Assembly: GCA_030646995.1 (NCBI GenBank)
Contig: JAUSKF010000004.1
Location: 84,404 to 148,403, forward strand
Direction of reading: 5' to 3'
Source: a bacterium
GTDB lineage: Bacteria; Patescibacteriota; Minisyncoccia; UBA6257; WO2-44-18
Length of the DNA stretch: 64,000 nt
Shown here piece after piece: positions 4,748 to 47,876 of the stretch. The notes under the pieces were generated by a model. It made no database searches. It had not been told where the DNA came from and saw only the letters and a program-made list of their open reading frames with translations. Position 1 is the stretch's first letter. Each line of letters opens with the position of its first letter. The position numbers and the translations under genes were made by a program.

Positions 4748-4748
4748 G

Positions 4749-20135: not shown

Positions 20136-20197
20136 TTTCTATCCTTTCAAAGTAACCAAGGATTATTTTATAACAAACCCCGTAAAATGGCTACGCC

Positions 20198-20236
20198 ATC
20201 ACGGGGCAAGAAAAAAGCCCCGTAAAGACGGGGTCA
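20198..20236 (-). terminator. rho-independent terminator of the 20509-21345 gene, displaced by element insertion
   Basis: Read on the minus strand: CCCCGTCTTTACGGGG followed by cttttttcttg. It lies just beyond the left terminal inverted repeat of the MITE-like element. Confidence 0.5.
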
Positions 20237-23102: not shown

Positions 23103-23529
23103 TCATGCGGCGGGGTAAGCTCGCATCAGCTTGTCGATGCCGCACCAGTTCTCCTGGTCCAGCAGGATGAAATCCAGGACCCACTTTCCCGTATCGCTGT
23201 TATAGCCCAAGAAAGGAACACGGCGCTTGCCTTGCGGATCATTCCAAACAGTACCGGGAAAAATCAGATAGAAATTCGTCCAGCTATGCGGAATGAAATT
23301 CTGACGCTCGAGCAACGCCTCAGCGTGTCTCTGGCCAAGATTGGCATCCAGCTCAAGAGCGCGGATGGCCATACGGTTACCATGGATCAGTCCTTCTTCA
23401 GGATGATGAAACCCGCAGATATCCATAACCACCAGATCATGCTCAACCTCGACATCCCTTTTCAATTTCCAGCCCCTCTCGCGCATGTCGCGGGCGAAGG
23501 GCTTGTCGGCAGTGATGACTGCGTACATG
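23103..23529 (-). CDS. hypothetical protein (142 aa), GC-rich relative to surroundings
   Basis: Trimmed to the ATG preceded by GAGGAGG; the longer N-terminal extension in the ORF track runs through GC-rich non-coding DNA. Confidence 0.45.
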
Positions 23530-23584
23530 AACGCCTCCTCAAATGTGCCGTCGGCTACTATAACACAAACGCCTAGGATAAAAA

Positions 23585-23615
23585 ATACCCCCGCCAGCAT
23601 GCTGCTGGACGGGGG
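23585..23615 (-). terminator. rho-independent terminator (minus strand) ending a ~450 nt GC-rich non-coding segment
   Basis: Read on the minus strand: CCCCCGTCCAGCAGCATGCTGGCGGGGG followed by tattttttatcc. Confidence 0.45.
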
Positions 23616-24061
23616 TTTGAGTTTGCGCCGCAATGGCAGCAACTTCGGACAGACGACCCGATCAACAATCGGGAGCCTTTTCCGGAAACTGCCTGCGGCA
23701 GTACATAAAAATTTATTAAAGAACCCCGCTCGGTTCCCGGCGACTTTGGGGAGATGTCGCTTTGGGGGAGGTGCTCGCCGGTCGCTTATCGCTCGTATGC
23801 CACTGCTGCCACCAGAGCAACAGCTCACGCCTTAGAGGCCGCGATCGCATATGAATTAACGAGCCAAGTACCGGCGTCTCGGGTTTTCGGGAGCCCGAGC
23901 GGGGCGGATATACTTTCTGATTTGCTGTAAGCAATTTTAGCAAGAAATCTTCTGCTAGTCAATGGCTCCGCTATTTGCAGACAATCGGCAAAAAGTAGAT
24001 CAAAACACCCGTAAAGATGGTGAGTAAGATTATTCCAAAAGCTTTGTCCATTACTTTAATT

Positions 24062-27986: not shown

Positions 27987-28328
27987 TTATTTTTCTATAG
28001 TTAAAAGATTCAAACGTTTTTGTTTCAAAAAATTCTGCGGCAACATACGCTTCACGGCCAACATCAAAACTTTCTCCGGAGATTTTGCAAAAGCCTCCTG
28101 GTAAACCTGCTCTTTCAAGTGACCCATATAGCCAGTGTGGCGATAGTAAATCTTTTGAGTCATTTTCCGACCGGTGACTACAATCTTCGAAGCGTTCTTA
28201 ACAACCACCTTATCTTTTCCGGGGTTGCGTGGCTGATAATCAGGATGCATTTTGCCCTGCAAAATCTGGGCAATCTGTGATGCCAAGCGTCCTAATTTCT
28301 GATCTTTTGCGTCAATTACGTATTGCAT
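27987..28328 (-). CDS. rplM: 50S ribosomal protein L13
   Basis: YYRHTGYMGHLK motif; canonical length. Confidence 0.95.
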   Translation of the reverse strand: MQYVIDAKDQKLGRLASQIAQILQGKMHPDYQPRNPGKDKVVVKNASKIVVTGRKMTQKIYYRHTGYMGHLKEQVYQEAFAKSPEKVLMLAVKRMLPQNFLKQKRLNLLTIEK

Positions 28329-28354
28329 TGTAGGATATTCTTATTGTTTAAACG

Positions 28355-28368
28355 TTTAAATATTTAAA
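28355..28368. promoter_or_regulatory. palindromic TTTAAATATTTAAA intergenic motif (1 of 5) upstream of rplM
   Basis: Exact 14 nt self-complementary motif, ~27 nt upstream of the start codon, in a 55 nt spacer. Confidence 0.4.
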
Positions 28369-28383
28369 GATATGATATATGAG

Positions 28384-28731
28384 TTACTTCACAAACTCAA
28401 TCACCGCCATCGGGGCGGCATCTCTCATGCGGGCCTTGGCCAACTTAGTGATGCGCAAGTAACCGCCGGCGCGATTCTGATAACGAGGCGCGACGTCAAA
28501 ATAAAGCTTCTTGGCAGATTTCTTAGGCAAAGCGGCAAGCAAGCGTCGAAGTGATGCTAATTGCTGCTTTTTGGCGATGGTAACCATTTTTTCCACCATC
28601 GGGCGAATTGCTTTGGCGCGCGCAACCGTAGTCGAAATCTTTTCTTTCATAATCAAATTATTAGCCAATCCTTGCAGGAAAGACTTTCGACGACCCATCG
28701 TACGATTAAATTTTCGCGCGTGCTTTGCCAT
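28384..28731 (-). CDS. rplQ: 50S ribosomal protein L17
   Basis: MAKHARKFNRTMGRRKS... canonical L17. Confidence 0.95.
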   Translation of the reverse strand: MAKHARKFNRTMGRRKSFLQGLANNLIMKEKISTTVARAKAIRPMVEKMVTIAKKQQLASLRRLLAALPKKSAKKLYFDVAPRYQNRAGGYLRITKLAKARMRDAAPMAVIEFVK

Positions 28732-28757
28732 TGTAGTATATTTCTATTATTTAAATG

Positions 28758-28771
28758 TTTAAATATTTAAA
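28758..28771. promoter_or_regulatory. palindromic TTTAAATATTTAAA intergenic motif (2 of 5) upstream of rplQ
   Basis: Exact 14 nt motif in the 45 nt rpoA-rplQ spacer. Confidence 0.4.
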
Positions 28772-28776
28772 CATCT

Positions 28777-29559
28777 TTACTCTTCTTTCTTCTTTTTCTT
28801 AGAGGCCTTTTTCGCTTTCTTTTCCTCTCCTTCTTCTGCAGCAACCGCAGACGCCTCTACTTCTTTGACTTCCACACCGGAAATCTTAACAAAGTGATCC
28901 TGCAAAATATTACTGGACTTTCTCAAAGCGGAAGATGGGGTGATACTGCCGTCGGTTGCGATAATCAAGCGGAGACGGTTGTAGTCAGCGCGCTCCCCTA
29001 CCCGCATATTTTCTACCGAAAAATTTACCTGTACTACCGGAGAGAATAAAGCGTCGATAGCGATAACACCAATCGGCAACTTATCGCTCTTACGGGATTC
29101 AACCGGCAAATAACCCAAACCCTTCTCCACGGTGATTTCCATATCTAATTCAGCATCCTTGCTGGTCAAGGTAGCAATGTGAACGTCGGAGCTAATCAGG
29201 TCAACTTGAGAGTTGGTCTTGATGTCGGACGCAGTCACAACTTTTTCTCCCTTAATCTTTAAAATCAAAACCTGAGGCTCGTCGGTGTGAATTCTAAAGC
29301 GAACTTTTTTCAAATTTAAAGCTACTTCCACCATGTCCTCCTTCACTCCTTCAACGGTAGAAAATTCATGGCTGGCTCCTTTGATTTTTACTTGAGTAAT
29401 CGCGGCGCCCGGAAGAGAAGAAAGCAAAACACGACGCAAAGCATTGCCAAGGGTTAAACCATAGCCACTGTACAATCCCTCAATTTCAAAAACCCCCTCT
29501 TTATCGGTTTCCGAGACCTTTTTGATTCCAACCGTCTCACTTAAATATTGATATTCCAT
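28777..29559 (-). CDS. rpoA: DNA-directed RNA polymerase alpha subunit (N-terminal domain only; no alpha-CTD)
   Basis: Alpha-NTD motifs (GYGLTLGNALRRVLLSSL, DALFSPV); 260 aa ending in an acidic/lysine tail in place of the ~80 aa HhH C-terminal domain. Confidence 0.9.
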   Translation of the reverse strand: MEYQYLSETVGIKKVSETDKEGVFEIEGLYSGYGLTLGNALRRVLLSSLPGAAITQVKIKGASHEFSTVEGVKEDMVEVALNLKKVRFRIHTDEPQVLILKIKGEKVVTASDIKTNSQVDLISSDVHIATLTSKDAELDMEITVEKGLGYLPVESRKSDKLPIGVIAIDALFSPVVQVNFSVENMRVGERADYNRLRLIIATDGSITPSSALRKSSNILQDHFVKISGVEVKEVEASAVAAEEGEEKKAKKASKKKKKEE

Positions 29560-29586
29560 AAGTTTTTTATTCTTTATATTTTACCT

Positions 29587-30201
29587 CTATTTACTATAAA
29601 AGTCAACCACAAGGTTCACATCAAACGGGATGTCGAAATCCTTAGGAGCGGAAAGCATCTTTCCCTCTTGTTTGTCAGCATCGACAGCCAACCAAACCGG
29701 AGCTTCGTATTTCTTTAGTTTTTCTCCCAAATCTTTGAAAAGCGGGTGTTCTTTAGACTGCGGACGAATGGAAACAATGTCTCCGGCTCGAAGCTGAATT
29801 GAAGGAATCGTGGCTTTGCGTCCATTCAACATAATATGGCCATGACTAACTAACTGGCGGGCAACGGAACGGGAAGCAGCAAATCCAACGCGATAGACCA
29901 CGTTATCTAAACGGCTTTCCAACAAGCTGATAATCAACGGACCGGTGACGCCGGGGTTACTGGTAGCTCTTTTTACGATCAAACGCATCTGATTCTCACG
30001 AATACCATAGGTATAGCGGATTTTTTGTTTCTCTTTCAGTTGAGTTCCAAATTCAGAAAGCTGTTTGCTAAAAGATTTACCGTGAGCTCCCGGTTTATGC
30101 GGCCTGCGTGAAGTAACGCATTTTGGAGAATTACAACGCTCCGCTTTCAAAAAAAGCTTTGTGCCTAGCGAACGTTCTCTTTTTTCTCGTGTATCAAACA
30201 T
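29587..30201 (-). CDS. rpsD: 30S ribosomal protein S4
   Basis: S4 domain (VSHGHIMLNGRKATIPSIQLRAGDIV). Confidence 0.95.
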   Translation of the reverse strand: MFDTREKRERSLGTKLFLKAERCNSPKCVTSRRPHKPGAHGKSFSKQLSEFGTQLKEKQKIRYTYGIRENQMRLIVKRATSNPGVTGPLIISLLESRLDNVVYRVGFAASRSVARQLVSHGHIMLNGRKATIPSIQLRAGDIVSIRPQSKEHPLFKDLGEKLKKYEAPVWLAVDADKQEGKMLSAPKDFDIPFDVNLVVDFYSK

Positions 30202-30227
30202 GGATGTATATTTTTATAATTTAAAAA

Positions 30228-30241
30228 TTTAAATATTTAAA
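30228..30241. promoter_or_regulatory. palindromic TTTAAATATTTAAA intergenic motif (3 of 5) upstream of rpsD
   Basis: Exact 14 nt motif in the rpsK-rpsD spacer. Confidence 0.4.
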
Positions 30242-30243
30242 CA

Positions 30244-30696
30244 TTAAATGCGGCGGACTTTGGGTGGTCTTGGACCGTTATGCGGAATCGGGGTTACGTC
30301 TTTAATAGAAAGGATATTGAAGCCATGGTTCGCCAAAGTGCGGACCGCGGAATCCCGGCCTCCGCCTACTCCGCTGACTACCACGTGCACATTGACCGGA
30401 CCGGACTTTTTCAACTTCTCAGCAATCACGGCGATTATCTTCGAAGCGGCAAAAGGAGTGGCCTTTTTCGGACCATTGAAACCCAAAGATCCGGCAGTGC
30501 TCCAAGCGAGTATATTACCTTTATCATCCGATACCGAAACTAGGGTGTTGTTGTAGGAAGCTTTGACGAAAACTTTGCCGGTATCAAATTTTTTGGAAAC
30601 CGACTTCTCGCTCGCCTTTGCAACAGCGGCTTCAGTCTTCTGGCCCTCTTTGAGGACTTCTTCGGTGGTTTGTTTTGTTGGTACTTTTTTACCCAT
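30244..30696 (-). CDS. rpsK: 30S ribosomal protein S11
   Basis: GKVFVKASYNNTLVSVSDDKGNILAWSTAGSLGF canonical. Confidence 0.95.
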   Translation of the reverse strand: MGKKVPTKQTTEEVLKEGQKTEAAVAKASEKSVSKKFDTGKVFVKASYNNTLVSVSDDKGNILAWSTAGSLGFNGPKKATPFAASKIIAVIAEKLKKSGPVNVHVVVSGVGGGRDSAVRTLANHGFNILSIKDVTPIPHNGPRPPKVRRI

Positions 30697-30717
30697 GTTG
30701 GTTGTGTATTTTTAGTA

Positions 30718-30731
30718 TTTAAATATTTAAA
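30718..30731. promoter_or_regulatory. palindromic TTTAAATATTTAAA intergenic motif (4 of 5) upstream of rpsK
   Basis: Exact 14 nt motif followed by a partial second copy (cgtttaaatatt). Confidence 0.4.
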
Positions 30732-30741
30732 CGTTTAAATA

Positions 30742-31125
30742 TTATTTCAACTCGTTTTTACGTTTTCCACTGCCAGCGGTCTTACGAACATTGCCACGCA
30801 CAGTGCGGGAGTTAGTCTTCGTCCTTTGGCCACGGACCGGGAGCTTGCGGGAGTGACGCATACCCCGATATGACTGCAAATCTTTCAATAAATTAATGTT
30901 CTGCTTGATGATTTGACGCAACTCACCCTCAACTTTAAAATTTTTCTCTATATGCGCCTGAATCCGGTTTACTTCCTCAGGGGTAAGAGTCTTGGCACGC
31001 TTGCTCGGATCAATTTTTACCTTCTCTAAAGTCTGGATTGCCAGAGTCCGGCCGATGCCGAAAAGATAAGTCAGCGCTATATCAATACGCTTGTTGTCTG
31101 GAATATTTGATCCGGAGATTCTCAT
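30742..31125 (-). CDS. rpsM: 30S ribosomal protein S13
   Basis: MRISGSNIPDNKRIDIALTYLFGIGRT canonical. Confidence 0.95.
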   Translation of the reverse strand: MRISGSNIPDNKRIDIALTYLFGIGRTLAIQTLEKVKIDPSKRAKTLTPEEVNRIQAHIEKNFKVEGELRQIIKQNINLLKDLQSYRGMRHSRKLPVRGQRTKTNSRTVRGNVRKTAGSGKRKNELK

Positions 31126-31143
31126 TGAAGTATATTTTATTAT

Positions 31144-31157
31144 TTAAATATTTAAAG
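31144..31157. promoter_or_regulatory. palindromic TTTAAATATTTAAA intergenic motif (5 of 5) upstream of rpsM
   Basis: Exact 14 nt motif in the rpmJ-rpsM spacer. Confidence 0.4.
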
Positions 31158-31177
31158 ATTTAAACATGGCGCTTCAC

Positions 31178-34431: not shown

Positions 34432-36195
34432 CTATTCTACAATTCCCCTGATACGGCGAACTCCAGCGGAAACTGCCTCTTCTTTGGCAATCTTAAACTT
34501 CCCTATCGTTAGGGTGTTAGACACGTGGGGACCGCCGCAGAATTCTTTGGAAAATGCCGAAGGAATATCGTGGCCGACATAATAAACCTTCACGCGCTCG
34601 GGGTATTTATCCAAAAAGAAATGGAGCGCCCCGGTTTTCGCGCCTTCTTCTTTCGCCATCTCCTCAAAACCCACCGGCAGGTCTTTCTGGATCTGCTCAT
34701 TCACTAAGTCCTCCACTTCTTTAATTTCTTCGACTGTCAGCTTCCGCGGGAAGATAAAATCAAAACGAGTACGCTCTACGGTGATATCAGAGCCTTTTTG
34801 CTGAACTTCATTGCCCAAAACTTTCCGAAGCGCCGCCTGCATCAAATGAGTCGCAGTGTGCAAACGAGTTACTTTCTTTAATTCCTCGGCGTCTTTCGCT
34901 TTCAATTCTCCAGTGTCCAGAAGCAGACCATGACCGCCGAATTTCTTTTCTACGCCCGCGCGAGAAATTTCTTGATGCTTTTTAAATTCTTCATCAAACT
35001 CGGTGCGATCCAATCCCTTGCTCGCCTCCGGAGCCAACTCTTTAATCAACTCAAATGGCAGACCGAAAGTTTCGTAAAGATAAAAGCCTTCTTTAGAACT
35101 GATGGCGGGGTATTTTTTAATTTCTTTCACGCCGAGCGCGATTGCCTGCTCGAACTTATCTTTCTCCGCCTCCAAGACCTCCAAAATCCTCAACTCTTTA
35201 ACTTCCGGATAAATATTGCCGAATTTTTCTTTCACCCACTCCACCGCCATCCCAAAGAGATTCCCGTGAACATCGTGGATGGTCTGATAAGCCAAAACGC
35301 GGCGAAGTAGGCGACGCAAAATATATCCTGCCTCTTTATTAGAGGGACGCACGCCGTCGGCGACCAAGAAAATGGAGGAGCGAAGATGGTCGGCGAGAAT
35401 ACGAACAACTCGATCTTCAATTCCCGGCGCCATCTCGCGGATCTTGGCGATTAGATCGCTGAAAACATCTGTCTCAAAAACACTCGGCGCGCCCTGCATC
35501 ACCGTTACCAACCGCTCAAAGCCCATGCCGGTATCAATGCCAGGGGTTTTCAAATTTTCCAGAGTCTTGTCGGACTTTTGGTAGAACTGATTGAAAACAT
35601 TGTTCCAAATCTCCACCCCCTCGCCTTTTTTCGCCTCCTCGGCAGTCTTAGCTACATAAATTTCAGTGGTCGGCCCGCAAGGACCTTCACTGCCGGTTGG
35701 ACCCCAGAAATTGTCGGCTCGGCCACGTTTAAATATTTTCTCCACCGGCATGCCGAGTTCTTTGTGCCAGATATCAAAAGATTCGTGATCATATGGAACT
35801 GCTCCCTCCCCGGCAAACACGGTGACATAAACCAATTCCGGATTCACTCCGAGAACTTTCGTGACATATTCATACGCCCAATGAATCGCTTCTTTTTTGA
35901 AATAACCGCCAAAAGAAAAATTGCCGAGCATTTCAAAAAAAGTGAGATGAGTTTTATCGCCGACTTCATCAATATCGGAAGTGCGGAAACATTTCTGGAC
36001 AGAAGTCGTACTTAAACTGCCGAAATCTTTTTGCGCGTTCAGTTCTCCGATAAAATATGGCTTGAACTGCTGCATACCGGCAGTCGTCAAAAGCACCGAG
36101 GGGTCGGTTGGCAACAATGACGAAGACGGCACGACAGCGTGCCCTTTGGACTTGAAGAAGTCCAGAAATGATTTACGAATCTCCTCGGAGGTCAT
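34432..36195 (-). CDS. alaS: alanine--tRNA ligase (catalytic + editing domains; lacks C-terminal C-Ala domain)
   Basis: N-terminal class II core (FLDFFKSKGH, TTAGMQQFKPYF); editing-domain HTATHLMQAALRKVLG and CGGPHV zinc motif. Confidence 0.9.
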   Translation of the reverse strand: MTSEEIRKSFLDFFKSKGHAVVPSSSLLPTDPSVLLTTAGMQQFKPYFIGELNAQKDFGSLSTTSVQKCFRTSDIDEVGDKTHLTFFEMLGNFSFGGYFKKEAIHWAYEYVTKVLGVNPELVYVTVFAGEGAVPYDHESFDIWHKELGMPVEKIFKRGRADNFWGPTGSEGPCGPTTEIYVAKTAEEAKKGEGVEIWNNVFNQFYQKSDKTLENLKTPGIDTGMGFERLVTVMQGAPSVFETDVFSDLIAKIREMAPGIEDRVVRILADHLRSSIFLVADGVRPSNKEAGYILRRLLRRVLAYQTIHDVHGNLFGMAVEWVKEKFGNIYPEVKELRILEVLEAEKDKFEQAIALGVKEIKKYPAISSKEGFYLYETFGLPFELIKELAPEASKGLDRTEFDEEFKKHQEISRAGVEKKFGGHGLLLDTGELKAKDAEELKKVTRLHTATHLMQAALRKVLGNEVQQKGSDITVERTRFDFIFPRKLTVEEIKEVEDLVNEQIQKDLPVGFEEMAKEEGAKTGALHFFLDKYPERVKVYYVGHDIPSAFSKEFCGGPHVSNTLTIGKFKIAKEEAVSAGVRRIRGIVE

Positions 36196-36324
36196 TCAAT
36201 GATTTTATAGATTCCAAAGACAATTCTCAAGTTAATACAATATGGTAATCCTACGCTACGCTCAGGATTGCTACTGCTAACCAAATTTTCTGCTTCTTTG
36301 AATTGAAAATTTGGAGCAGTAGGT

Positions 36325-36358
36325 AAAAAAATCCCCTCCGGTTTTTACACCGAAGGGG
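36325..36358 (-). terminator. rho-independent terminator of GC-rich cassette
   Basis: Read on the minus strand: CCCCTTCGGtgtaaaaaCCGGAGGGG followed by attttttt, immediately 3' of the stop at 36380. Confidence 0.5.
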
Positions 36359-36379
36359 AACTGGCCTCGTGAACTATGC

Positions 36380-36799
36380 CTACACGAGCATGTATTTGAC
36401 GGCGGTCTCCATCACCAGCGACGCCGCCTTCAGGCTAGTGAGCCGGAGCTCACCCACCCAGAAGATCGGGGTGCCGGAGTACGACAGTTGGATCTTCAGC
36501 TCCTGCTGAAGAACCAACTCCTCCCCGGTCGGCATCTGGATACGATACTCCAGAATGCCGGTCGGGATATCCCCGAACGCGCTCTCTTCGGGCGCGCACC
36601 GGAGGTTGGCCATGACCCGCACTCCGCTCTCAAAGAAGAGAACGAAGTCCGGGTCGCACTTCAGCGCCCGCTCGACACCCTCCACGATGGAGGGCGCCAG
36701 CTTCTGGATCTCCGCGAATTCCTTCGCGAAGGTCCGCCCCGCCGGGGAAAGCTCCGACAACGACCTGACTGCCCGTCTGCTCGTCGTGGTGTTGCTCAT
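36380..36799 (-). CDS. hypothetical protein (139 aa), GC-rich cassette gene
   Basis: ORF with downstream terminator; ~60% GC against a ~45% core. Confidence 0.5.
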   Translation of the reverse strand: MSNTTTSRRAVRSLSELSPAGRTFAKEFAEIQKLAPSIVEGVERALKCDPDFVLFFESGVRVMANLRCAPEESAFGDIPTGILEYRIQMPTGEELVLQQELKIQLSYSGTPIFWVGELRLTSLKAASLVMETAVKYMLV

Positions 36800-36875
36800 A
36801 ACTTTTCTCCTTGAGTAGAATTTCTTGATTAGGCGATCGATCCGCGATGGACCGATCTAGCCCCGGAACCGGCGA

Positions 36876-37259
36876 CTACAGCATACGCAGGCGACCCGCC
36901 ACCGTGATGGCAATAATCACCGGCTTGACCTCCGGCCCACGATTCATCCGGTAGGCCCACTCTCCGGAACTGGTGTTCCGGACCCTGACCGTACACGCGC
37001 CCGACGGCGTTCTAGTGCTATCGGGTTTCAGGATCCAAACCCCAATCTCCAGCTGGAGATTGGCGCCGTGGCCGGTCTGGAAGCTCGAAAAGACGAGCTT
37101 CGATTTCAATCGGCCACCAACCTTCAGAAGATCGTCGATCTGCTCGACGATTTTCTGTTTCAGCCGCCCCCAGCCCGTCATGAGCTGGTGCTGAACCTCG
37201 TCGGCGGCAATGCCAATCCGAGGCCGGTCGTAGAGCGTAAAGCATGTGTTGACGGCCAT
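36876..37259 (-). CDS. hypothetical protein (127 aa), GC-rich cassette gene
   Basis: AGGAGGAGG RBS; promoter TTGACA-17-TAGACT upstream, inside the repeat. Confidence 0.5.
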   Translation of the reverse strand: MAVNTCFTLYDRPRIGIAADEVQHQLMTGWGRLKQKIVEQIDDLLKVGGRLKSKLVFSSFQTGHGANLQLEIGVWILKPDSTRTPSGACTVRVRNTSSGEWAYRMNRGPEVKPVIIAITVAGRLRML

Positions 37260-37339
37260 ACACCTCCTCCTAAATTAGTTTTCAAGGTTAAGCTTAGATC
37301 ACCTCAATCCAAGCCAAGAAAGTCTAGCATACTTGAGCC

Positions 37340-37540
37340 TATTTGTCAAGGGCTCATGGCTTCCTACCCCAAGCTCCTCATAAGACCTTCGGCGGCCAAA
37401 CCGCGACTTATTTAAGCTATTTTTTCGGCCCTAAAATTGGGGTGCGCCAAAATAGCTAAACGCACGGGGCTACGCCTCGGAATCTTATTCGGAGCATTGG
37501 GGTAAAGCCTGATTCGCTTTGTTAAAACTGGAACCAAGAA
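37340..37540. repeat. GC-rich intergenic repeat, copy A (~200 bp)
   Basis: Aligns along its length with 46440-46690 and partially with 57790-57875. Shared blocks include gaccttcggcggcc, ggccctaaa, cgcacggggctacgcctcggaatc, ttcgcttt and aagggctc. Confidence 0.55.
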
Positions 37541-37544
37541 TCCC

Positions 37545-39305
37545 CTACTCGCTCACTTCTACGGCCCCGCCCATGCCCGGGTTTAAATGGTCGTGATACT
37601 TCCAAGAACCTGCCTTTTCAAATACAAAAGAATAAGACTCCCCCTCGCTTAAACCGCCCAGGGAATCAAAGCCCGGTAAAACTAAATGGGTTGGGTGCGA
37701 CGCCGAAGCCGGCCAGTGTGGACGAATATCTTTATTCAACCAGGTAACTTTCGCGCCAGCCGCAACTTGAATCATCGGAGGCTCAAATCCGGTGGTAGTG
37801 ATAAAGACCGTAATTGATTCCGGCTGAAGAACGGAGGTAGTTTTAATGGGCACATGGCCGATTGCTTCATTGGCCGGAACAGAATTCAACGCTTTGGGAA
37901 CTTCAATCGATTTAGGATTTTCTAAAGCTCTAAAAAATTCTTCAATAGTAGAAAGAAGAATCTTAACTGTCCGCAGGGAAGCCGCGATGCTTTCCGGAGC
38001 CTCTTCTCTTTCGATTGATTTAGCCAAGGCAACAATTCTTCGCTCGGCCTCGCTTAGCAAAGAGAATAGTTTCGGATTCTGCTCTTTAGTAAAGTCGGAC
38101 TTATTTACCTCGGAAAGCCAAAAGTCATATACCTTATTAATATTTTCCAAATCACTCTCGGCATCCGATATATCCGGATTCAGCTGATTAATCGCATTTT
38201 TTAAAGCGGCCTGGGCGGCGGTAGCCTGTCCGAAAGCTCCTCCATAATTACCTTCTTCTAAAAACTTCTCGGCTTGCAAAAGACCGAATTTTGCCCGCTC
38301 CACCAGCTCCTTGGGAGCGTTTTTTACGGATACCCGCTCACTAATCATCTCTTCCACCCTGGCCAGCAAGTCTTGCGCTTCGGCCATGGCCTGTTTGGCC
38401 CGTTCTTCGCTGATGCCTCCGGCATCTTCAATCTTGGATAAAATTCTCTGGCGAATAATATTTAATTCGTTACGCAATGCCGAGGTAAGCACTTTTTCTC
38501 GAACTTCATCAATAAGCCGTAATCGACGCAAACGATCTCCGGACAACCCGCTTAAATCCCCCAATTCCCCGCCAGCCAATACTAATCCCTCCAATTTTCC
38601 ACCAAATTTCAAAAGTAAATCCTCGCGTAGAAAAGAAACGGATTTTTCCGCTTCTCCTGAAAGCGCTTCTCCTAAACGATCCGCCAAATCGGCGGCCCGC
38701 AACTCTCTGAAGGGATCGTTAAGCTCCTGAACCTCCAAAAGAAATTGAGCCTTGAAGTCTCGTGGGTTAACCAACCGAATCGGCGCCTGCGCCAAAGCAG
38801 CTGCCAAGGAATCAACCGCTTTTTCTATTTTCTCTAATGAAGCTTTTTCATTCGAATATTTATTGGACAAATCTTCCAGCAATCGGAAGTGGCGCAATCC
38901 CTGTGAAATCAAATCCTCCGAAATAGCCGACAATTTGGAGCTTCCGAGCTCGTCTTTGATGGCCTCGAGATTTTCCATCAGCCGGGAAAGGCTATCCAAA
39001 TAACTATCCAATGCGCGATCAATGGCAAAAAGATTGCCGGTGGCAATTTCCTCCAGCTTCTTAAGTTCTGCCGCTTTTTCGTTCAAAACATTCAACTCCA
39101 ACTGGGCACGATTGCTGGCGCTAGCCGAGAGTAACTTGCGGAAACCCCGTCCCCATTCTTTCAAAAAATAGAAAGGATTCGAAGGCAAAAGACCGGAGCT
39201 TTGGATGCCCAAATCACCCCCTTCTTGAGCCAAAAGGAATGCCTGCGGGACCGTTATAGACAATGCAACGGCCGCCGTTATAAGTATCTTATGTAGTTGT
39301 TTCAT
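37545..39305 (-). CDS. secreted coiled-coil-rich protein with C-terminal cupredoxin-like domain
   Basis: Trimmed to the internal ATG giving signal peptide MKQLHKILITAAVALSITVPQA. C-terminal KVTWLNKDIRPHWP...YHDHLNPGMGG resembles a plastocyanin-like fold but has no Cys. Confidence 0.55.
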   Translation of the reverse strand: MKQLHKILITAAVALSITVPQAFLLAQEGGDLGIQSSGLLPSNPFYFLKEWGRGFRKLLSASASNRAQLELNVLNEKAAELKKLEEIATGNLFAIDRALDSYLDSLSRLMENLEAIKDELGSSKLSAISEDLISQGLRHFRLLEDLSNKYSNEKASLEKIEKAVDSLAAALAQAPIRLVNPRDFKAQFLLEVQELNDPFRELRAADLADRLGEALSGEAEKSVSFLREDLLLKFGGKLEGLVLAGGELGDLSGLSGDRLRRLRLIDEVREKVLTSALRNELNIIRQRILSKIEDAGGISEERAKQAMAEAQDLLARVEEMISERVSVKNAPKELVERAKFGLLQAEKFLEEGNYGGAFGQATAAQAALKNAINQLNPDISDAESDLENINKVYDFWLSEVNKSDFTKEQNPKLFSLLSEAERRIVALAKSIEREEAPESIAASLRTVKILLSTIEEFFRALENPKSIEVPKALNSVPANEAIGHVPIKTTSVLQPESITVFITTTGFEPPMIQVAAGAKVTWLNKDIRPHWPASASHPTHLVLPGFDSLGGLSEGESYSFVFEKAGSWKYHDHLNPGMGGAVEVSE

Positions 39306-40272
39306 AGTAATTCCAGCTACACCTTGTTGAGAGCAGAACTTGCCTGCCGAAGGCATGGCTGGAGGCAAAAAGCTATCTAAAATGGGTAGATTTGGACTCT
39401 GCCCAACAAAAAAGGCCTTAACAGACCTTAGGGATACTATATCACAAAGGGTATCGGAAAACAATCCTCTTTGGGGAATAAAAAAGCCCCCGTCTGCGTG
39501 AGCAAGCGGGGGTAAATCTGGGTCGCGTGGTAGCGGGTTGGGGGCGTAAGCCTCGCCATTGTCCTGCCCATCGGCAGGCATCGCGCTACCGACGCAACCT
39601 TTTCGAGAAAACTGCGCGCAGTCCGCGGTGTGGCCCCACCGCGGTGTAGAGGCCACTCATTCGCCTCTATGTTCCGGCGAGCCCCTGAGGGTACTCTATT
39701 CTCTCCGCGCCATCCAATTAAGCGGAGTTCTATAAGGCCGGAATTGACACGCACCACTCTTGTGATGCGGCTGCCAGGGTGGCTGCGCGCGCCCACCTGC
39801 ACCAAAAAGGATCCTTGTCCCTCGCGTAGATCATCAGACCTTACGCAAGGGACTTGTCCCATACATTAGAAATGTACGGTCTCTAACACTACAGTCATTC
39901 ACTAAAAGCACTTCGTTTTTCTAGCTTTATGGAACACACTGCGAAGCCCTAATCCCCCTTTATAGCGGGATGGGCAAGCCCGCCTGAGGCGGGTAAATAA
40001 AAGACCCTTTTTGATGCGGGTGGACTACTTAACGTTCTAGGAGAGATTATAGCGTATAACCTAATTCTTGTCAAGCCCCCACACCAAACGAGAAGTTTGG
40101 CTGAATTCTTTTGCTTCTCGTTGTGGTGTGGGGGTCAAGGGCTCCGGCATGTTCCTCGAAACTACTCCCTGCGCTTTGGAAAAAAACGCCTCCGAGACGT
40201 TCCTTGAAGATGTTTTCCCAAGATAGTAACCGACCGGTGTTATCCCGCGAGATAACACCCCATCGTTGACTA
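39306..40272. other. ~1 kb GC-rich, hairpin-dense non-coding block
   Basis: No credible ORF; ORF-track entries here are Arg-rich translations of GC-rich DNA. Multiple long perfect stems, e.g. 40078-40136, 39968-39998 and 39630-39680. Confidence 0.3.
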
Positions 40273-40411: not shown

Positions 40412-41014
40412 TTACTTGTTTGTTGAATCCTCAGCGGGAGTGTTCTCTCTGCGGATGCGATCCACGATCGCCTTGCGCTCCCGCCGGTTTCTTTCTGCCT
40501 CTTGATAGCCACACTCCACTTTTTCCAAATCGACCCTATCCCAATACGCCATTCGCTCCCAAACCTCGAACGGGACGCGCACATAGACATCGTCCCCGTC
40601 GGGGCTGATGAGTTGCGCCACAGACTCCCGCGGATCGACGAGCTGAAAGAGCTTGACCCTCTTCACCCGGTAACCGTCATAGTCGAGCATCTGTCGAAGC
40701 GTCAACTCCGGCCCGCGACGCGCCCGGAAAAATTCACCGAACTCGCCGAAGTACCAGATGCTGAACGCAAGCGCGAAGACCCCGGTGGAAATTAGCGTTG
40801 CAGGATGCGTGCCTACCGCCTTCAGCTTCGCCAGCGGCTTTCGGAAAGGGTACATGGCCACACCCACAACCTTCATGAAGGCGTTGCGCAGCCAGCCATT
40901 CCTCTGCTCCAGCATTCCTTCCAGCTCATCAATCCGCCTCTGCTTCTCGGTGCACAACTCCACATAATCCGGCTGGTCGACATACTTGGAACCGTCCTGC
41001 GGGGCTTCACTCAC
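40412..41014 (-). CDS. hypothetical single-TM protein, GC-rich; probable GTG start
   Basis: AGGAGG 6 nt before GTG at 41014; the ATG at 41053 lacks an RBS. TM segment LISTGVFALAFSIWYFGEF. Confidence 0.45.
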   Translation of the reverse strand: MSEAPQDGSKYVDQPDYVELCTEKQRRIDELEGMLEQRNGWLRNAFMKVVGVAMYPFRKPLAKLKAVGTHPATLISTGVFALAFSIWYFGEFGEFFRARRGPELTLRQMLDYDGYRVKRVKLFQLVDPRESVAQLISPDGDDVYVRVPFEVWERMAYWDRVDLEKVECGYQEAERNRRERKAIVDRIRRENTPAEDSTNK

Positions 41015-41347
41015 AGCTTTCCTCCTTGTAAGGGACTGGCGAGATATTAGCATGTCAAACTGAATTCGTCAAACTATAAAAATCCCTGCCGGCAGGCAGG
41101 CCCTTCAATAAGAACAAAGCGAACGAGGTTACTTTTTGTTCTCGTAGCTCCTCAAAGCAGAGGCGAAGGCGTGTTGGTTCAAGGAACATCTCGGAGGCGG
41201 TTGGGCTTGGCTCGTTCGTTGTCCATATTTACGAACGAACAACCGCCGAGAGAGAAGAAAACCCCGCCGTTGGAGTGGGGTTATTCTGTGTCCGAGAATC
41301 AATACGCCAGAGCCCTTTGCGAGAGAATAAAAGTAGCCGAGTGAGCC

Positions 41348-44877: not shown

Positions 44878-45306
44878 TTATTTAACTCTTATTTCGCCGG
44901 TCATTGTGGCGGGATTGTCGGAGGAATGATAAGTGTAGGTGCCGGGGAAATTAAACAGATGAGTAAAAAGCTCGCCGTATTTAAGTTGGGTAGAATTCGC
45001 AAGTTTAGTCAGTAATCCGGCCGGTTGAGAATCAAAGTTCACGGAATGAAAAAGTTCGTCACCATTCTTCCAGAGAACCTTCGTCCCCGGGCTGACTACA
45101 ATCCTACGAGGATTAAAATCAAAATCTTTCATATCTACCAGCACCTCCGTGATTCCCCGCAAATCAAAATATCCGGCTGGCACCTCTTCTGTAAAAATAC
45201 CCTCCTCTTTCTCCGGCAGTCCCGATTGAAAATAATTAAAAAATACAAATAAACCGGCCAAACAAATAGCGGCGGTCAATACTCCAATTAGAAATAAACG
45301 CTTCAT
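44878..45306 (-). CDS. secreted cupredoxin-like protein (Cys ligand replaced by Ser)
   Basis: N-terminal TM/signal; PGTKVLWKNGDELFHSVNF...PGTYTYHSSDNPATMTGEIRV matches the plastocyanin/pseudoazurin pattern except C->S. Confidence 0.55.
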   Translation of the reverse strand: MKRLFLIGVLTAAICLAGLFVFFNYFQSGLPEKEEGIFTEEVPAGYFDLRGITEVLVDMKDFDFNPRRIVVSPGTKVLWKNGDELFHSVNFDSQPAGLLTKLANSTQLKYGELFTHLFNFPGTYTYHSSDNPATMTGEIRVK

Positions 45307-45336
45307 ACAAGAAAAGTCTAACGCAAATTCCGGTAA

Positions 45337-45374
45337 TAAAAAACCTCTGCAATTACGCAGAGGCTTTGTTTGTT
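45337..45374. terminator. bidirectional rho-independent terminator
   Basis: aaaaaaa-CCTCTGC-aattac-GCAGAGG-ctttgtttgttt. Confidence 0.5.
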
Positions 45375-45375
45375 T

Positions 45376-46431
45376 CTAAAATGGCTTTATTTGCTTCAGC
45401 AAATCGGAAGCCGGATTAAACCTGAACTTCTTCACCGGTTCGAAGAAGTCACTACATTGCTCAAGCGCAAAGACAATCTCTTTCGCTTCTTCGCTAGTCA
45501 AACTTTCCTTCATTCCCTTCTCCAAAACTTCGATAGTGTATTTGGGGGAAAGAAGCTCGGGATCTCGGCCGGGCACTCTCTTGGCCCGCTCTTCGAGCAT
45601 CCGCCTCGGCAACTCTTTCGCAAGGAACCAAAGCGCATCGCGAAGTTTTGCATAAGTCTCAGAGCTTGTGTCAGCGTTGCATTCTTTCACGGCTCGGAGA
45701 ACCGACCGGAAAGAAGGCGGCCTCTTAACTGATGCCGCGCGGCAGGCCAACACTCCGCCGATGCCTCCGCCATCCGCCCTTTCTGGCGGAGGCGGATCCG
45801 CTTCAAGCACTTCGCAAGATGGCAGGAGAAGGATTGCCTCGGAATCAATCTCCTTCTCTTCGGGCTCGGCCGATGCCAGCCTGACATCGGAAACCAACAG
45901 CGAACAAGGCAGATTCAAATTTTTCAAAGATTGCGGGATGTGGTCGTAGGAAATAACATGTACCAATTTTCCGGCGACAATCAGCGCTTGCACCAGCTTG
46001 AAGAACGGCTCACCGCCATCCCCTGTGCAAAGCACTACTCCCTGAACGCGAGCATCGTTAGCCATCAGCAAACCGATTTCGCAAAGGGCCAAATCCGCAG
46101 AATCCTTCCCTTGTGGAACCAGAATCACGGAAGTGAAGTCGCGATCAATGAGGCACTGCATCATCCGAGAATTATCTTTGCGCATCGCCACCGGCTTCTT
46201 CCGAATGTCAGCGCTCTCTCCATGCACAACAGACTTCGGGGCAGACAGCGCAGCATCTGCGCGAATCAAAGGTCCAAATTGACCGGCAATTCGATCAGCT
46301 TGATCAATCGCTAGATTCAAAACCTTTACATCCGTCAGGCTGCAACCATCATCGTGCCTTGCCTGAATAGTCAAATTTTCAACGTCCATCAAGATGACAC
46401 TGCCCTTGAGCGTACTCGTCTCCGCATGCAT
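45376..46431 (-). CDS. NYN-domain (LabA-like, PIN-like nuclease) protein with C-terminal extension, GC-rich
   Basis: VILMDVENL...DSADLALCEIGLLMANDARVQGVVLCTGDGGEPFF matches the NYN D...EN...D...GDGDF pattern. Start trimmed to the ATG preceded by GGAGAGG; the longer ORF runs into the repeat. Confidence 0.55.
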   Translation of the reverse strand: MHAETSTLKGSVILMDVENLTIQARHDDGCSLTDVKVLNLAIDQADRIAGQFGPLIRADAALSAPKSVVHGESADIRKKPVAMRKDNSRMMQCLIDRDFTSVILVPQGKDSADLALCEIGLLMANDARVQGVVLCTGDGGEPFFKLVQALIVAGKLVHVISYDHIPQSLKNLNLPCSLLVSDVRLASAEPEEKEIDSEAILLLPSCEVLEADPPPPERADGGGIGGVLACRAASVKRPPSFRSVLRAVKECNADTSSETYAKLRDALWFLAKELPRRMLEERAKRVPGRDPELLSPKYTIEVLEKGMKESLTSEEAKEIVFALEQCSDFFEPVKKFRFNPASDLLKQIKPF

Positions 46432-46439: not shown

Positions 46440-46690
46440 CTCTCCAAGACAGCGGTGATATCTTACTAATTTTTTGCCAAAAAGTAAAGGGCTCGCTCGG
46501 TCTTTGCATAACTTCTCACTCGACCTTCGGCGGCCATGCCGCGACTCACTTAACGAGATTTTTCCGGCCCTAAAGGGACACTTCGTTCCCGAAAAAATCT
46601 CTATTCGCACGGGGCTACGCCTCGGAATCTCGTTCGAAATTATGCAAAGGCCTCATTCGCTTTATAAAAAATCTCCGCAAAAATGCGGAG
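46440..46690. repeat. GC-rich intergenic repeat, copy B (~250 bp) carrying the promoter of the NYN gene
   Basis: Homologous to copy A. On the minus strand TTTACT-17-TAAGAT promoter at the left end, aligned with TTGACA-17-TAGACT in copy A. Confidence 0.55.
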
Positions 46691-47394: not shown

Positions 47395-47500
47395 GGTTAG
47401 TAAACCCAAATCGGTATTTAGTATAAGGTATCCGGTATTAAGTATGCCCTCGCTCAAATACGGAATACTTCATACTTGATACTAAATACTAAAAATCCGG
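47395..47500. repeat. AT-rich palindromic intergenic repeat (GTATTAAGTAT family), copy b
   Basis: ccggtattaagtatg ... atacttcatacttgatactaaatactaaaaa. Confidence 0.4.
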
Positions 47501-47520
47501 CATTGCCGGATTTTGTTTTT
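47490..47520. terminator. rho-independent terminator downstream of tRNA-Pro (bidirectional hairpin)
   Basis: aaaaa-ATCCGGC-att-GCCGGAT-tttgttttt. Confidence 0.5.
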
Positions 47521-47521
47521 G

Positions 47522-47592
47522 TCGGGGCGCCGGGAATCGAACCCGGCCTATACGCACCCCATGCGTACGTACTGCCGATATACTACGCCCCG
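47522..47592 (-). tRNA. tRNA-Pro (anticodon GGG), CCA not encoded
   Basis: Hand-folded cloverleaf on the minus strand: acceptor CGGGGCG/CGCCCCG, D-arm GTAT-ATCGGCA-GTAC, anticodon stem TACGC/GCGTA with loop ATGGGGT, T-arm CCGGG-TTCGATT-CCCGG, discriminator A. Confidence 0.85.
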
Positions 47593-47607
47593 ATATTTAC
47601 TTACCAA

Positions 47608-47644
47608 CCAATCCTACTAAAAATCCCCTTCGAATGAAAGGGAT
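47608..47644. terminator. hairpin terminator downstream of rpmB
   Basis: aaaaATCCCCTTcgaatgaAAGGGATttttatttt. Confidence 0.4.
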
Positions 47645-47645
47645 T

Positions 47646-47876
47646 TTATTTTGCTGGAACTGTTTCTGGAGCTTTCGGCTTTTGGTACTTCGGAAGAGGC
47701 TTATTCTGACTCCTTAAGCATTGAGTACAAACCAAAGCTCTTACTCCGGAAGCGAGACGAGTCCTCTGCAAGTTCGGATATTTGCGAGTCCAATTGGTCG
47801 GGTTGTAGTGACCACGCAAAAGAACGCGGGTACCCGCCATCAGAGATCCTTTTTGACATACTGCACACTGTCTCAT
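47646..47876 (-). CDS. rpmB: 50S ribosomal protein L28 (Cys4 zinc-ribbon type)
   Basis: MRQCAVCQKGS...RKYPNLQRTRL...CTQC; trimmed from the ORF-track TTG start to the internal ATG. Confidence 0.65.
   Translation of the reverse strand: MRQCAVCQKGSLMAGTRVLLRGHYNPTNWTRKYPNLQRTRLASGVRALVCTQCLRSQNKPLPKYQKPKAPETVPAK

Follow-up and report, generated by a model that had tools for sequence, protein, structure and literature searches.

A lineage-restricted, GC-rich two-gene operon with predicted RNA structure across its coding sequences in a Patescibacteriota bacterium

Atypical GC content is commonly taken as a sign of horizontal transfer. Two small adjacent open reading frames (ORFs) in the 64,000-nucleotide stretch analyzed here (the window) stand out in this way, and the question is whether they are horizontally acquired cargo, as originally predicted, or whether their composition has another cause.

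Layout of the cassette and its relatives

The two ORFs encode proteins of 127 and 139 amino acids (orf127 and orf139), and the contrast on which the original prediction rested was borne out, with GC contents of 0.594 and 0.624, respectively, compared with 0.462 for the window. GC content by codon position was 0.58/0.45/0.76 in orf127 and 0.58/0.43/0.86 in orf139. Third-position GC (GC3) across approximately 58 nonoverlapping ORFs of at least 100 codons in the window ranged from 0.38 to 0.64 except in three, which were orf127 (0.76), orf139 (0.86), and a further ORF, orf213 (0.70). Expression-linked codon bias was rejected as the source of the high GC3 because ribosomal-protein and RNA polymerase genes have a GC3 near 0.5. 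Several alternative overlapping ORFs are present in other frames across the GC-rich patch. The features of the cassette, in the order of its predicted transcription, are as follows.

37321..37349, minus strand: sigma-70-type promoter of the cassette (consensus scan, 10/12 matches)
37260..37314, minus strand: 5′ untranslated region of about 55 nt, with an inferred transcription start (sequence, MFE structure, Shine-Dalgarno survey)
36876..37259, minus strand: orf127, the putative optional first gene (codon composition, dN/dS, homologues, AF2, mRNA structure)
36800..36875, minus strand: intergenic spacer with the Shine-Dalgarno sequence of the second gene, AAGGAG (sequence, Shine-Dalgarno survey)
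36380..36799, minus strand: orf139, the putative core gene (codon composition, dN/dS, homologues, AF2, hhalign, mRNA structure)
36322..36359, minus strand: intrinsic terminator (11-bp G+C-rich stem at 36359-36332, 6-nt loop, T-run)

The cassette is arranged as an autonomous unit that comprises a dedicated promoter, two ORFs, and a dedicated terminator, as had been proposed. The promoter consists of a −35 element TTGACA (37349-37344), a 17-nt spacer, and an extended −10 element TG-n-TAGACT (37326-37321), and the 5′ untranslated region contains a predicted 5′-terminal stem-loop followed by a strong Shine-Dalgarno sequence, AGGAGGAGG. Both genes have strong and correctly spaced Shine-Dalgarno sequences, and only 11 of 52 genes of the genome have one. 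The terminator lies 3′ of orf139, and equivalent terminators were found after the second gene in the related loci L089, L081, and L086. The flanking genes were also as described: alaS lies downstream (34432-36195, minus strand), and the secreted-protein gene upstream encodes a signal-peptide DUF5667/cupredoxin-like protein with a true start near 39314.

Related genomes or contigs from metagenomes, at least seven in all (L001, L081, L086, L088, L089, L090, and L056), contain syntenic homologues, which were identified by synteny, an exhaustive HMMER run, and profile search; a single-sequence word-indexed protein search returned self matches alone. In L001, L081, L086, L088, and L089, the DUF5667 gene and alaS flank the cassette or its core gene, and related arrangements are present in L090 and L056. 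One further match in a scan of metagenome contigs, L087 (66% GC), had no supporting ORF and was taken as chance. The two genes occur together, in one predicted transcription unit, in L001, L088, and L089, with a spacer that is 76 nt in the window and variable, at approximately 12 to 45 nt, in relatives. Five homologues of orf127 were detected, and the homologues of orf139 include P0003, P0004, and those in the three loci that keep the pair. The orf139 homologue stands alone in L081 and L086, L090 pairs an orf127 homologue with an alternative protein (family B), and L056 contains family B without an orf127 homologue. Profile comparison of the orf139 family with family B by hhalign gave 94.8%, and the two are distantly homologous. 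Presence/absence variation is confined to orf127, which is always accompanied by a partner, and the partner can stand alone. Judged from these sequences, the orf139-superfamily gene appears to be the core of the cassette and orf127 an optional first gene.

Both ORFs showed strong codon periodicity, with GC3 far above second-position GC, and both frames are open in five to six lineages despite identities of only 36 to 61% to the proteins of the window (37 to 84% over all pairs). Moreover, all indels in the family alignments are multiples of three, and substitution rates fall from the third to the first to the second codon position. The ratio dN/dS was 0.30 for orf127 (against L001), 0.48 for orf139, and 0.033 for alaS. 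We conclude that both ORFs are real genes.

Predicted RNA structure across the coding sequences

The whole cassette transcript folded with a z-score of −12.7 relative to dinucleotide shuffles, with L001 at −5.1 and an alaS control at −2.5. When synonymous codons were permuted, z-scores ranged from −2.5 to −9.2 in 12 of 13 family genes, with orf139 at −9.2; the L081 family member scored just −0.9. In 23 control segments, drawn from neighboring genes in the window and in L081, L001, and L056, z-scores ran between +1.6 and −3.2; in control ORFs rich in GC3, they ran between +1.5 and −3.5. GC3 alone was rejected as the source of the folding excess because z-scores were mostly near 0 for orf213 and other GC3-rich ORFans. 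Runs of four successive 300-nt segments with strong predicted structure occur just twice in the 64 kb, and the cassette is one of them. A blastn search excluded the possibility that the cassette is an array of repeat copies or has complementarity to sequence elsewhere in the window.

Consistent with a conserved fold, consensus-MFE z-scores of the two cassette families were −10.5 and −7.5, compared with segments of DUF5667 and alaS, which scored +1.5 to −2.2. The consensus for orf127 contains 118 pairs in an arrangement that includes twelve conserved helices, one of which pairs 20-27 with 382-390. Compensatory change was seen at 29 of these pairs, compared with 15.5 ± 2.7 in shuffles (0 of 500 reached 29) and 5 to 10 in slid controls, for a structure that was derived from the very alignments, of 5 to 6 sequences per family, on which it was tested. 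The orf139 family consensus, built in the same way, contains 97 pairs, including 17-19 with 431-433, and 22 of the 97 are compensatory. The RNAalifold covariation term was slightly positive for the two families (+4.9 and +3.8), which is a net penalty. Hairpins at homologous positions carry double substitutions, and some compensatory changes alter amino acids, from Leu/Ser to Phe/Asn in one stem and from Pro...Gly to Phe...Asn in another. Some conserved long-range helices enclose loops of 30 to 60 nt, and others close each coding sequence end to end. Paired columns are richer in G+C and evolve more slowly than unpaired columns at all three codon positions, and the slower evolution argues for constraint rather than mutagenesis. 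GC3 in unpaired consensus columns was 0.69 to 0.77, and thus conserved structure would explain much, but not all, of the GC excess.

Rfam 15 at gathering thresholds returned one tRNA and nothing else over the whole window, and Rfam covariance models gave no match at E values up to 1 between 36000 and 41200. An unclassified structured noncoding RNA of approximately 560 nt lies 2 kb from the cassette. No conserved antisense promoter was identified in the cassette, in which weak 9/12 matches alone were seen. Pairing in the initiation regions and ribosome-binding sites does not exceed that of the remaining transcript, and sequestration of the Shine-Dalgarno sequence or start codon as an off switch was not supported.

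The reading that we hold to be somewhat probable is that the cassette is a fixed operon, in the order promoter, optional orf127, orf139-superfamily gene, and terminator, whose GC3 excess is largely the footprint of selection for RNA structure rather than of recent horizontal transfer. The transcript of approximately 1 kb is predicted to form densely spaced, stable helices throughout both coding sequences, under evolutionary constraint, and the fold may give the message unusual resistance to ribonucleases. As the ribosome-binding sites are not extra-paired, the message would be long-lived and steadily translated into two fast-evolving proteins that probably work together. A long-lived, structure-stabilized message is our best guess at the role of the fold.

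A stronger version of the same idea, which we consider unlikely but worth keeping in view, is that the transcript is truly bifunctional, acting as a structured RNA in its own right (a scaffold, a decoy, or a partner of the encoded basic protein) and also encoding two proteins. The fold and the protein would then coevolve, with the upkeep of base pairs dictating amino acid replacements. Two known kinds of coding RNA resemble the cassette. Like the hok message of the hok/sok type I toxin-antitoxin system, the cassette has its own promoter and terminator and a conserved fold over the whole message including the coding sequence, with helices that join the 5′ part of each coding unit to its 3′ part and compensatory substitutions within the ORF. 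Unlike hok, which encodes a hydrophobic peptide of no more than 60 amino acids on a transcript of approximately 0.4 kb, the cassette encodes two soluble proteins of 127 to 139 amino acids on approximately 1 kb, has no identified antisense RNA gene, and does not preferentially sequester its ribosome-binding sites. RNA viruses and RNA phages have coding sequences that likewise contain dense conserved hairpins inside ORFs and show covariation that constrains synonymous, and even nonsynonymous, sites. The cassette differs from these in that it is encoded in DNA and occupies a fixed place on the chromosome in several metagenome-assembled genomes. Genes for a replicase, a coat protein, or lysis are lacking, as are viral relatives.

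Protein families and the case for acquisition

The orf127 protein is basic (pI 10.1; GRAVY −0.12), and the orf139 protein (GRAVY +0.08) belongs to a family with a conserved N-terminal motif, LS..SP.GR.FA.EF. AF2 models, built on very shallow alignments (three sequences for orf139), predicted, for orf127 (pLDDT 71), a long helix followed by four beta strands and a helix at the C terminus and, for orf139 (pLDDT 80), three N-terminal helices, a meander of four to five strands, and a C-terminal helix. Both genes encode small cytoplasmic proteins of new families that, as modeled, share a long N-terminal helix, a four- to five-stranded beta-meander, and a C-terminal helix. Comparison of orf127 with orf139 by hhalign gave only 13.7%, too low to establish that the two are paralogues, although the predicted topologies are alike. 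The statement that the proteins lack recognizable motifs held up: scans of Pfam, NCBIfam, PADLOC, and PHROGs with the single proteins and with every family member gave no match, and sequence and profile searches of the PDB gave solely chance matches to engineered repeat proteins. Foldseek searches with the predicted models gave no structural match for either protein, and no RelE-, ParE-, HicA-, or MazF-like structure was among the results.

The sole functional lead is a half-domain profile match between orf139 and PAS_3 (PF08447). The C-terminal beta-meander of orf139 resembles strands G-H-I of multi-PAS_3 sensor proteins, and the family shares with them the pattern Y-R-h-x-h-P-x-G-E ... h-x-h-x-h ... 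G-x-P-h. Matches of orf139 to PAS_3 repeat proteins by phmmer reached an E value of 5e-12, summed over repeats, and hhalign of the family to the repeats gave 94.3% (E = 1e-7, 48 columns), a probability inflated by preselection of the repeats as query matches. Family B (17.8%) and orf127 (1.6%) aligned weakly in the same register. The likeness is limited in that the match covers half a domain only and that none of 14 family members matched any Pfam PAS model, even at an E value of 5. Moreover, the orf139 model lacks the N-terminal A and B strands and does not reproduce the B-A-I-H-G sheet with helices between B and G, and no PAS structure was among its top 50 Foldseek matches in the PDB. We infer that orf139 may be a core PAS-like binding or sensing module and orf127 its optional basic partner, possibly a nucleic acid binder.

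If the cassette were instead a horizontally acquired toxin-antitoxin-like or immunity pair, the basic orf127 protein would act as the toxin, and the part of antitoxin or immunity protein would fall to orf139 or family B, which may persist as an orphan. Such a pair would fit the atypical composition, the autonomous promoter and terminator, and the strong Shine-Dalgarno sequences in a genome in which few genes have one. It would also fit the dependence of orf127 on a partner that is itself found alone, the swap between orf139 and family B, and fast divergence, with 36 to 61% identity for the cassette proteins compared with 89 to 94% for alaS wherever comparable length sufficed. Similarity patterns out of step with the flanking gene point the same way: the DUF5667 protein of the window is nearest to that of L089 (78%), the cassette genes are nearer to those of L001, L088, and L090, and the discord hints at recombination or exchange. 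In reverse-order type II toxin-antitoxin systems such as HicAB and HigBA, two small adjacent genes are likewise cotranscribed, the first product is basic, the second is approximately 140 amino acids, and presence is patchy, divergence rapid, and composition atypical. The cassette differs in that its products have no homology to any known family, its second gene is the conserved one and is solitary in some genomes, its locus is chromosomally fixed, and no DNA-binding domain is evident.

Several observations bear against recent acquisition. The cassette has the composition of a genomic islet (GC of 0.59 to 0.62 versus 0.46; GC3 of 0.76 and 0.86 versus 0.38 to 0.64), but an islet is expected to vary in presence at a given locus among close relatives, and in these relatives the locus is occupied by the cassette or its core gene. 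The cassette is equally GC3 rich there (0.70 to 0.86), and GC3 is high in every lineage even though synonymous sites in alaS are saturated. The cassette borders contain no integrase, transposase, or tRNA, and no relatives were found among viral contigs, phages, or plasmids, a search in which weak tblastn matches to LysR genes were discarded. Repeat A, a separate hairpin-forming intergenic repeat of approximately 190 nt that also occurs elsewhere in L081, had been proposed as a boundary that carries the promoter. The predicted promoter abuts a copy of the repeat in the window, but the promoter is present in five of the six related loci compared, and the homologous spacers of all six lack the repeat. 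A promoter of the form TTGAC(A/T), 17 nt, TG-n-TA.A.T precedes the cassette in L001, L088, L081, and L086, and in L089 TTGACA alone is visible, too near the annotated ATG.

A toxin-antitoxin-like pair is further disfavored by a lack of matches to toxin, antitoxin, defense, or phage families and by a putative antitoxin with no recognizable DNA-binding domain, and it would leave the RNA structure over both coding sequences unexplained. We therefore consider an acquired pair improbable, if not negligibly so. The case for recent transfer in general is weak, the toxin-antitoxin-like and phage-related options found no homologue, and of the original suggestions it is "something novel" that survives; acquisition long ago by an ancestor of the clade is possible. 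Homologues were detected solely within one narrow clade. We conclude that the cassette is a lineage-restricted, chromosomally fixed small operon of one genus-level Parcubacteria-like CPR clade of ultra-small bacteria.

Other accounts of the fold and its significance

The inverted repeats could also be an unselected by-product at the DNA level, arising by quasi-palindrome template-switch mutagenesis or by GC-biased gene conversion at a recombination hot spot. Either process would yield palindromes, apparent compensation, high GC3, and fast protein evolution together, and the cassette does contain many perfect hairpins of 6 to 9 bp with loops of 3 to 8 nt, combined with fast evolution and incongruent similarity patterns. 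Moreover, the antisense strand is structured too, with z-scores of −6.9 and −4.0. However, the sense strand is consistently the more stable, and conserved G-U pairs are present whose counterparts in DNA or on the opposite strand would be mismatched as A-C. The conserved long-range and end-to-end helices go beyond local palindromes, and the slower evolution of paired columns at each codon position is not what mutagenesis would leave. We regard a DNA-level origin as quite unlikely. Least probable by far is that the region is a structured noncoding RNA with two chance open frames, which would suit the extreme folding scores and conserved helices, the alternative ORFs expected of GC-rich DNA, and a true structured noncoding RNA 2 kb away, but which is opposed by the period-3 composition (0.58/0.43/0.86), the indel and substitution patterns, dN/dS below 1, frames kept open at 36 to 61% identity (37 to 84% over all pairs), correctly spaced Shine-Dalgarno sequences, and protein-like AF2 models.

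To our knowledge, bacterial messages in which the entire coding region is selected for structure are rare beyond type I toxin mRNAs and RNA viruses, and protein-altering compensatory changes in such messages are rarer still. The structure-stabilized operon that we favor would offer a clear natural example of double coding, in which one sequence specifies both a protein and an RNA fold, in CPR bacteria, a group that is poorly understood. It would also add two or three new small protein families that are possibly PAS derived. If the RNA has a function of its own, it would be among the largest bifunctional bacterial RNAs and, with the neighboring noncoding RNA, would mark a CPR-specific RNA-centered locus. 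The GC contrast of the cassette is conserved over lineages and appears to track an RNA fold in the coding sequence, which points to a cause other than horizontal transfer and one worth testing elsewhere.

Setting and signals of the cassette

GC, ORF, GC3 and signal scans agreed on a GC-rich patch of two ORFs with its own promoter and terminator, as the original prediction had described. GC content climbs to 0.58 to 0.63 over ~36300-37250, in a window with 46.2% GC.

Features of the cassette and its neighborhood
34432-36195, minus strand: alaS, downstream of the cassette; its counterpart in L081, a locus of a related genome, has tRNA-synt_2c and tRNA_SAD
36359-36332, minus strand: clean intrinsic terminator of the cassette, with T-run
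36380-36799, minus strand: orf139, second gene (ORF listing)
36876-37259, minus strand: orf127, first gene (ORF listing)
37349-37321, minus strand: cassette promoter-like site (TTGACA, 17 nt, TG-n-TAGACT)
37350-37545: repeat A, copy next to the cassette, ~190 nt, intergenic
37545-39656 as listed (703 aa), minus strand: secreted DUF5667/cupredoxin-like protein gene, upstream of the cassette
39478-40039, minus strand: non-coding transcription unit of ~560 nt, between orf213 and the DUF5667 gene
40412-41053, minus strand: orf213

The listed 703-aa DUF5667 ORF begins 114 spurious codons too early; the extension overlaps the terminator of the non-coding RNA and the gene's own promoter (TGTGATATAGTATCC), the true start lies at ~39314 with a signal peptide MKQLHK... 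(MKQLHKILITAAVAL), and homologues are 572 to 586 aa long. Among ~58 non-overlapping ORFs of the window, GC3 ranged from 0.38 to 0.64 apart from three outliers: orf139 (0.86), orf127 (0.76) and orf213 (0.70). Because the GC3 of the cassette falls outside that range, we conclude that the original description was accurate and far from chance. The product of the third outlier, orf213, is 213 aa long, has a single predicted membrane helix and matches no family; a 221-aa gene follows rpoD at the equivalent position in L081.

Shine-Dalgarno-like motifs were found at only 11 of 52 window genes, both cassette genes being among the strong minority, and many core genes, including ribosomal-protein genes, rpoB/C and alaS, have an A/T-rich leader or a TATAAT abutting the start codon, which together suggest that leaderless or Shine-Dalgarno-independent initiation is widespread in the window. 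In spacers between ribosomal-protein and adjoining genes (28326-31167), a 46-nt A/T-rich repeat (…TATTTAAA.GTTTAAATATTTAAA.AT) occurs five times, in part as inverted pairs; it is probably a promoter or operator that these genes share.

Relatives and origin of the cassette

Word-indexed searches with single cassette proteins returned self matches only. A scan for alaS relatives located L001 (alaS 91% identical), where the DUF5667 gene and alaS flank two homologues in the gene order of the window, first one of 128 aa (58% identity) and then one of 146 aa (49%). Moreover, an exhaustive HMMER run gave two orf139 relatives, P0003 and P0004, and a profile search gave four more orf127 relatives.

Gene order at further related loci
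L088: DUF5667, orf127 homologue, orf139 homologue, contig end
L089: DUF5667, orf127 homologue, orf139 homologue, alaS
L081 and L086: DUF5667, lone orf139 homologue, alaS
L090: orf127 homologue, then a 131-aa family B protein
L056: 130-aa family B protein (39% identity to that of L090) upstream of alaS, without an orf127 homologue

Homologues of the pair stand side by side in L001, L088 and L089. Family B is distantly homologous to the orf139 family by profile comparison (hhalign 94.8%, E 5e-8); given this and the varying make-up of the relatives, the second gene is the core of the cassette and orf127 an optional first gene. A near-consensus promoter with extended −10 and a strong Shine-Dalgarno were each present in 5 of 6 related loci, and a terminator followed the second gene wherever the contig reaches that far. 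Neither family occurred at any of the other 78 alaS loci (alaS ≤71% identical).

The stretch directly upstream of alaS is a variable spot in the clade. Some relatives have extra genes between cassette and alaS that are missing from the window (L001:4113-4931; L056:2635-3156), one extra family upstream of alaS comprises 173- to 175-aa proteins with a single membrane anchor, and L001 also has a 70-aa GC-rich ORF near alaS with over-structured mRNA (z −3.5). More distant CPR genomes have unrelated GC3-rich ORFans ≤2.5 kb upstream of alaS (L005:5451-6182, L009:6835-7410, L031:7600-7851), that of L009 with a GC3 of 0.66 versus a genome median of 0.26 and some folding excess (z −3.3).

The original prediction placed the promoter in repeat A and took the repeat as the boundary of probable horizontally acquired cargo. 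Repeat A folds as one long imperfect hairpin (z −5.2; core GGGGCTACGCCTCGGAATC), with further copies at ~46480-46680, ~57700-57850, 2432-2487 (inverted) and L081:5334-5352. It was not found in the homologous spacer of L001, L088, L089, L081 or L086, and in L081 it occupies another spacer. Because five related loci keep the promoter and none has the repeat, the promoter belongs to the cassette itself. Repeat A resembles MITE or REP elements in occupying different intergenic sites across related genomes, and is a multi-copy intergenic element untied to the cassette.

Recent import fared no better. Family genes have 56 to 63% GC and GC3 of 0.70 to 0.86 in every genome (backbone GC3, ~0.5) even though synonymous sites of alaS have reached saturation among them (dS 1.8), and the contrast is therefore maintained rather than a fading import signature. 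Moreover, no cassette relatives were found in viral contigs, phages or plasmids. One rival reading is a toxin-antitoxin or immunity pair; the cassette proteins matched no defence or toxin-antitoxin families. Identity to the window's cassette proteins was 36 to 61% (all pairs, 37 to 84%) versus 89 to 94% for alaS, and the window's DUF5667 is nearest to L089 (78%), whereas both cassette genes are nearer to L001, L088 and L090. Such rapid divergence and a similarity pattern at odds with the flanking gene fit some exchange or accelerated evolution.

The orf127 family is basic (pI 9.5 to 10.1); C6 and the pair A88-C89 are invariant in it, and it has a GWGxLKQ motif. The orf139 family varies in charge (pI 5.3 to 9.6) and conserves LS..SP.GR.FA.EF close to its N-terminus and, within the sheet, Y..MP.G...I.L...G.P..V. 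AlphaFold2 models of both proteins have a long N-terminal helix, a 4- to 5-strand antiparallel meander and a C-terminal helix. Foldseek against PDB and BFVD gave no match at E ≤ 0.001 for either model, and PAS_3 is the only lead from sequence. Multi-PAS_3 sensor proteins matched orf139 residues ~63-130 in the HMMER run, the orf139 family profile aligned to their PAS_3 repeats over strands G-H-I only (94.3%), and family B and orf127 aligned weakly to PAS_3 in the same register. A PAS fold was not indicated by predicted topology or fold search, and no family member matched Pfam PAS models even at E = 5. We conclude that the cassette genes are novel and regard a PAS origin as a lead rather than as a classification.

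Predicted RNA structure within the coding sequence

The predicted transcript (36325-37320, minus strand) folded at −493.5 kcal/mol and its dinucleotide shuffles at −396 ± 7.7 (z −12.7); the L001 cassette gave z −5.1 and an alaS segment −2.5. A stricter control permuted synonymous codons within each gene, keeping protein, codon usage and GC3. Thirteen family genes then gave z of −3.5, −9.2, −3.1, −2.8, −5.7, −3.3, −3.9, −5.4, −2.5, −4.6, −0.9, −2.8 and −2.5, and 23 neighbor-gene segments (window, L081, L001, L056) gave +1.6 to −3.2. Among GC3-rich controls, orf213 (−0.3, −0.6) lacked excess structure, unlike the cassette, and other ORFans gave +1.5 to −3.5. A scan of the 64 kb by 300-nt windows (mean z −0.7, sd 2.0) had four windows in a row below −4 at just two places, the cassette and a non-coding RNA locus.

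Other strongly folding 300-nt windows (z −4.6 to −7.9) were 4501-4800, 45301-45600, 47401-47700, 20101-20400, 2401-2700 and 23401-24000, some of which match inverted repeats (4586-4753), tRNA-Pro with flanking repeats, or repeat-A-like copies. A 241-aa ORF within one (23106-23828; GC 0.54) has an odd N-terminus, VSCCSGGSSG, and may not be a gene.

The window and its relatives form perfect hairpins at homologous positions, and these differ from one another by substitutions on both sides of the stem. Near nt 160 of orf127, the window has GAAGCTCG.TCTTTT.CGAGCTTC, L001 has GAAGTTCG.TCTTTT.CGAACTTC (Leu...Ser to Phe...Asn) and L090 has GAAACTCG.TCTTTT.CGAGTTTC; near nt 106 of orf139, the arms are CCCTCCA/TGGAGGG in the window, GTTCTCC/GGAGAAC in L001 and CTCCTCC/GGAGGAG in L089. 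For alignments of 5 to 6 sequences per family, with predicted structures derived from the alignments tested, RNAalifold gave 118 pairs in 12 helices for five orf127-family genes (84.7% of cells paired), with both-side changes in 29 pairs versus 15.5 ± 2.7 in shuffles (0/500 reached 29) and 5 to 10 in slid registers, and 97 consensus pairs, 22 compensatory, for the orf139 family. When alignment columns were shuffled keeping codon position, gaps and conservation, consensus-MFE z was −10.5 for orf127, −7.5 for orf139, −0.3, −1.9, −0.2 and +1.0 for DUF5667 segments, and −2.2, −1.3, +1.5 and −2.1 for alaS segments.

Palindromes of purely mutational origin are a rival reading. As caveats to the modeled structure, the RNAalifold covariation term is slightly positive for the cassette families, and GC3 in unpaired columns is still 0.69 to 0.77. 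Paired columns have higher G+C, and their rate of change is lower at each of the three codon positions. The sense strand is stabler than the antisense (z −9.3 versus −6.9 for orf127, −7.1 versus −4.0 for orf139) and conserved G-U pairs occur, both of which favor a structure at the RNA level.

A non-coding RNA with chance ORFs is effectively excluded by the homologues, codon periodicity and open frames found. The two ORFs are genuine genes, because independent evidence agrees: GC by codon position (orf139, 0.58/0.43/0.86; orf127, 0.58/0.45/0.76), synteny, dN/dS versus L001 (orf127, 0.30; orf139, 0.48; alaS, 0.033), Shine-Dalgarno motifs, and protein-like AlphaFold2 models (pLDDT 71 for orf127, 80 for orf139) built on very shallow alignments. 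Consistent with coding, nucleotide-level alignments of 5 to 6 homologues had indels only in multiples of three and differences per site in the order third > first > second codon position. We conclude that coding and modeled RNA-structure constraints overlie the same sequence.

The neighboring RNA and the role of the cassette

The ~560-nt non-coding unit has a perfect promoter at ~40045-40075 (TTGACA, 17 nt, TATAAT), a GC content of 0.56 to 0.59, a terminal intrinsic terminator and no conserved ORF. It is kept in L001, L088 and L086, and L081 retains the promoter and 5′ part only. A 24-bp long-range helix closes its 5′ domain (76 consensus pairs, 8 compensatory, with a covariation bonus). Rfam gave no match for it up to E = 1; the unit is a candidate for a new, large structured RNA in this CPR clade.

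The cassette is an autonomous, strongly signalled operon of an orf139/family B core gene and an optional basic partner. Because pairing around the Shine-Dalgarno sequences and start codons does not exceed the mean of the transcript, its structure would not be an off switch. The predicted structure would shield the message from ribonucleases, giving a long-lived mRNA that encodes two rapidly evolving proteins, which would act jointly; possibly the RNA also has its own function, perhaps along with the basic protein it encodes. Foreign cargo bounded by a repeat is largely replaced by a clade-specific operon whose GC richness would reflect a conserved coding-sequence RNA fold. A conserved RNA fold throughout coding sequence is an unusual feature, enough to merit experimental follow-up.
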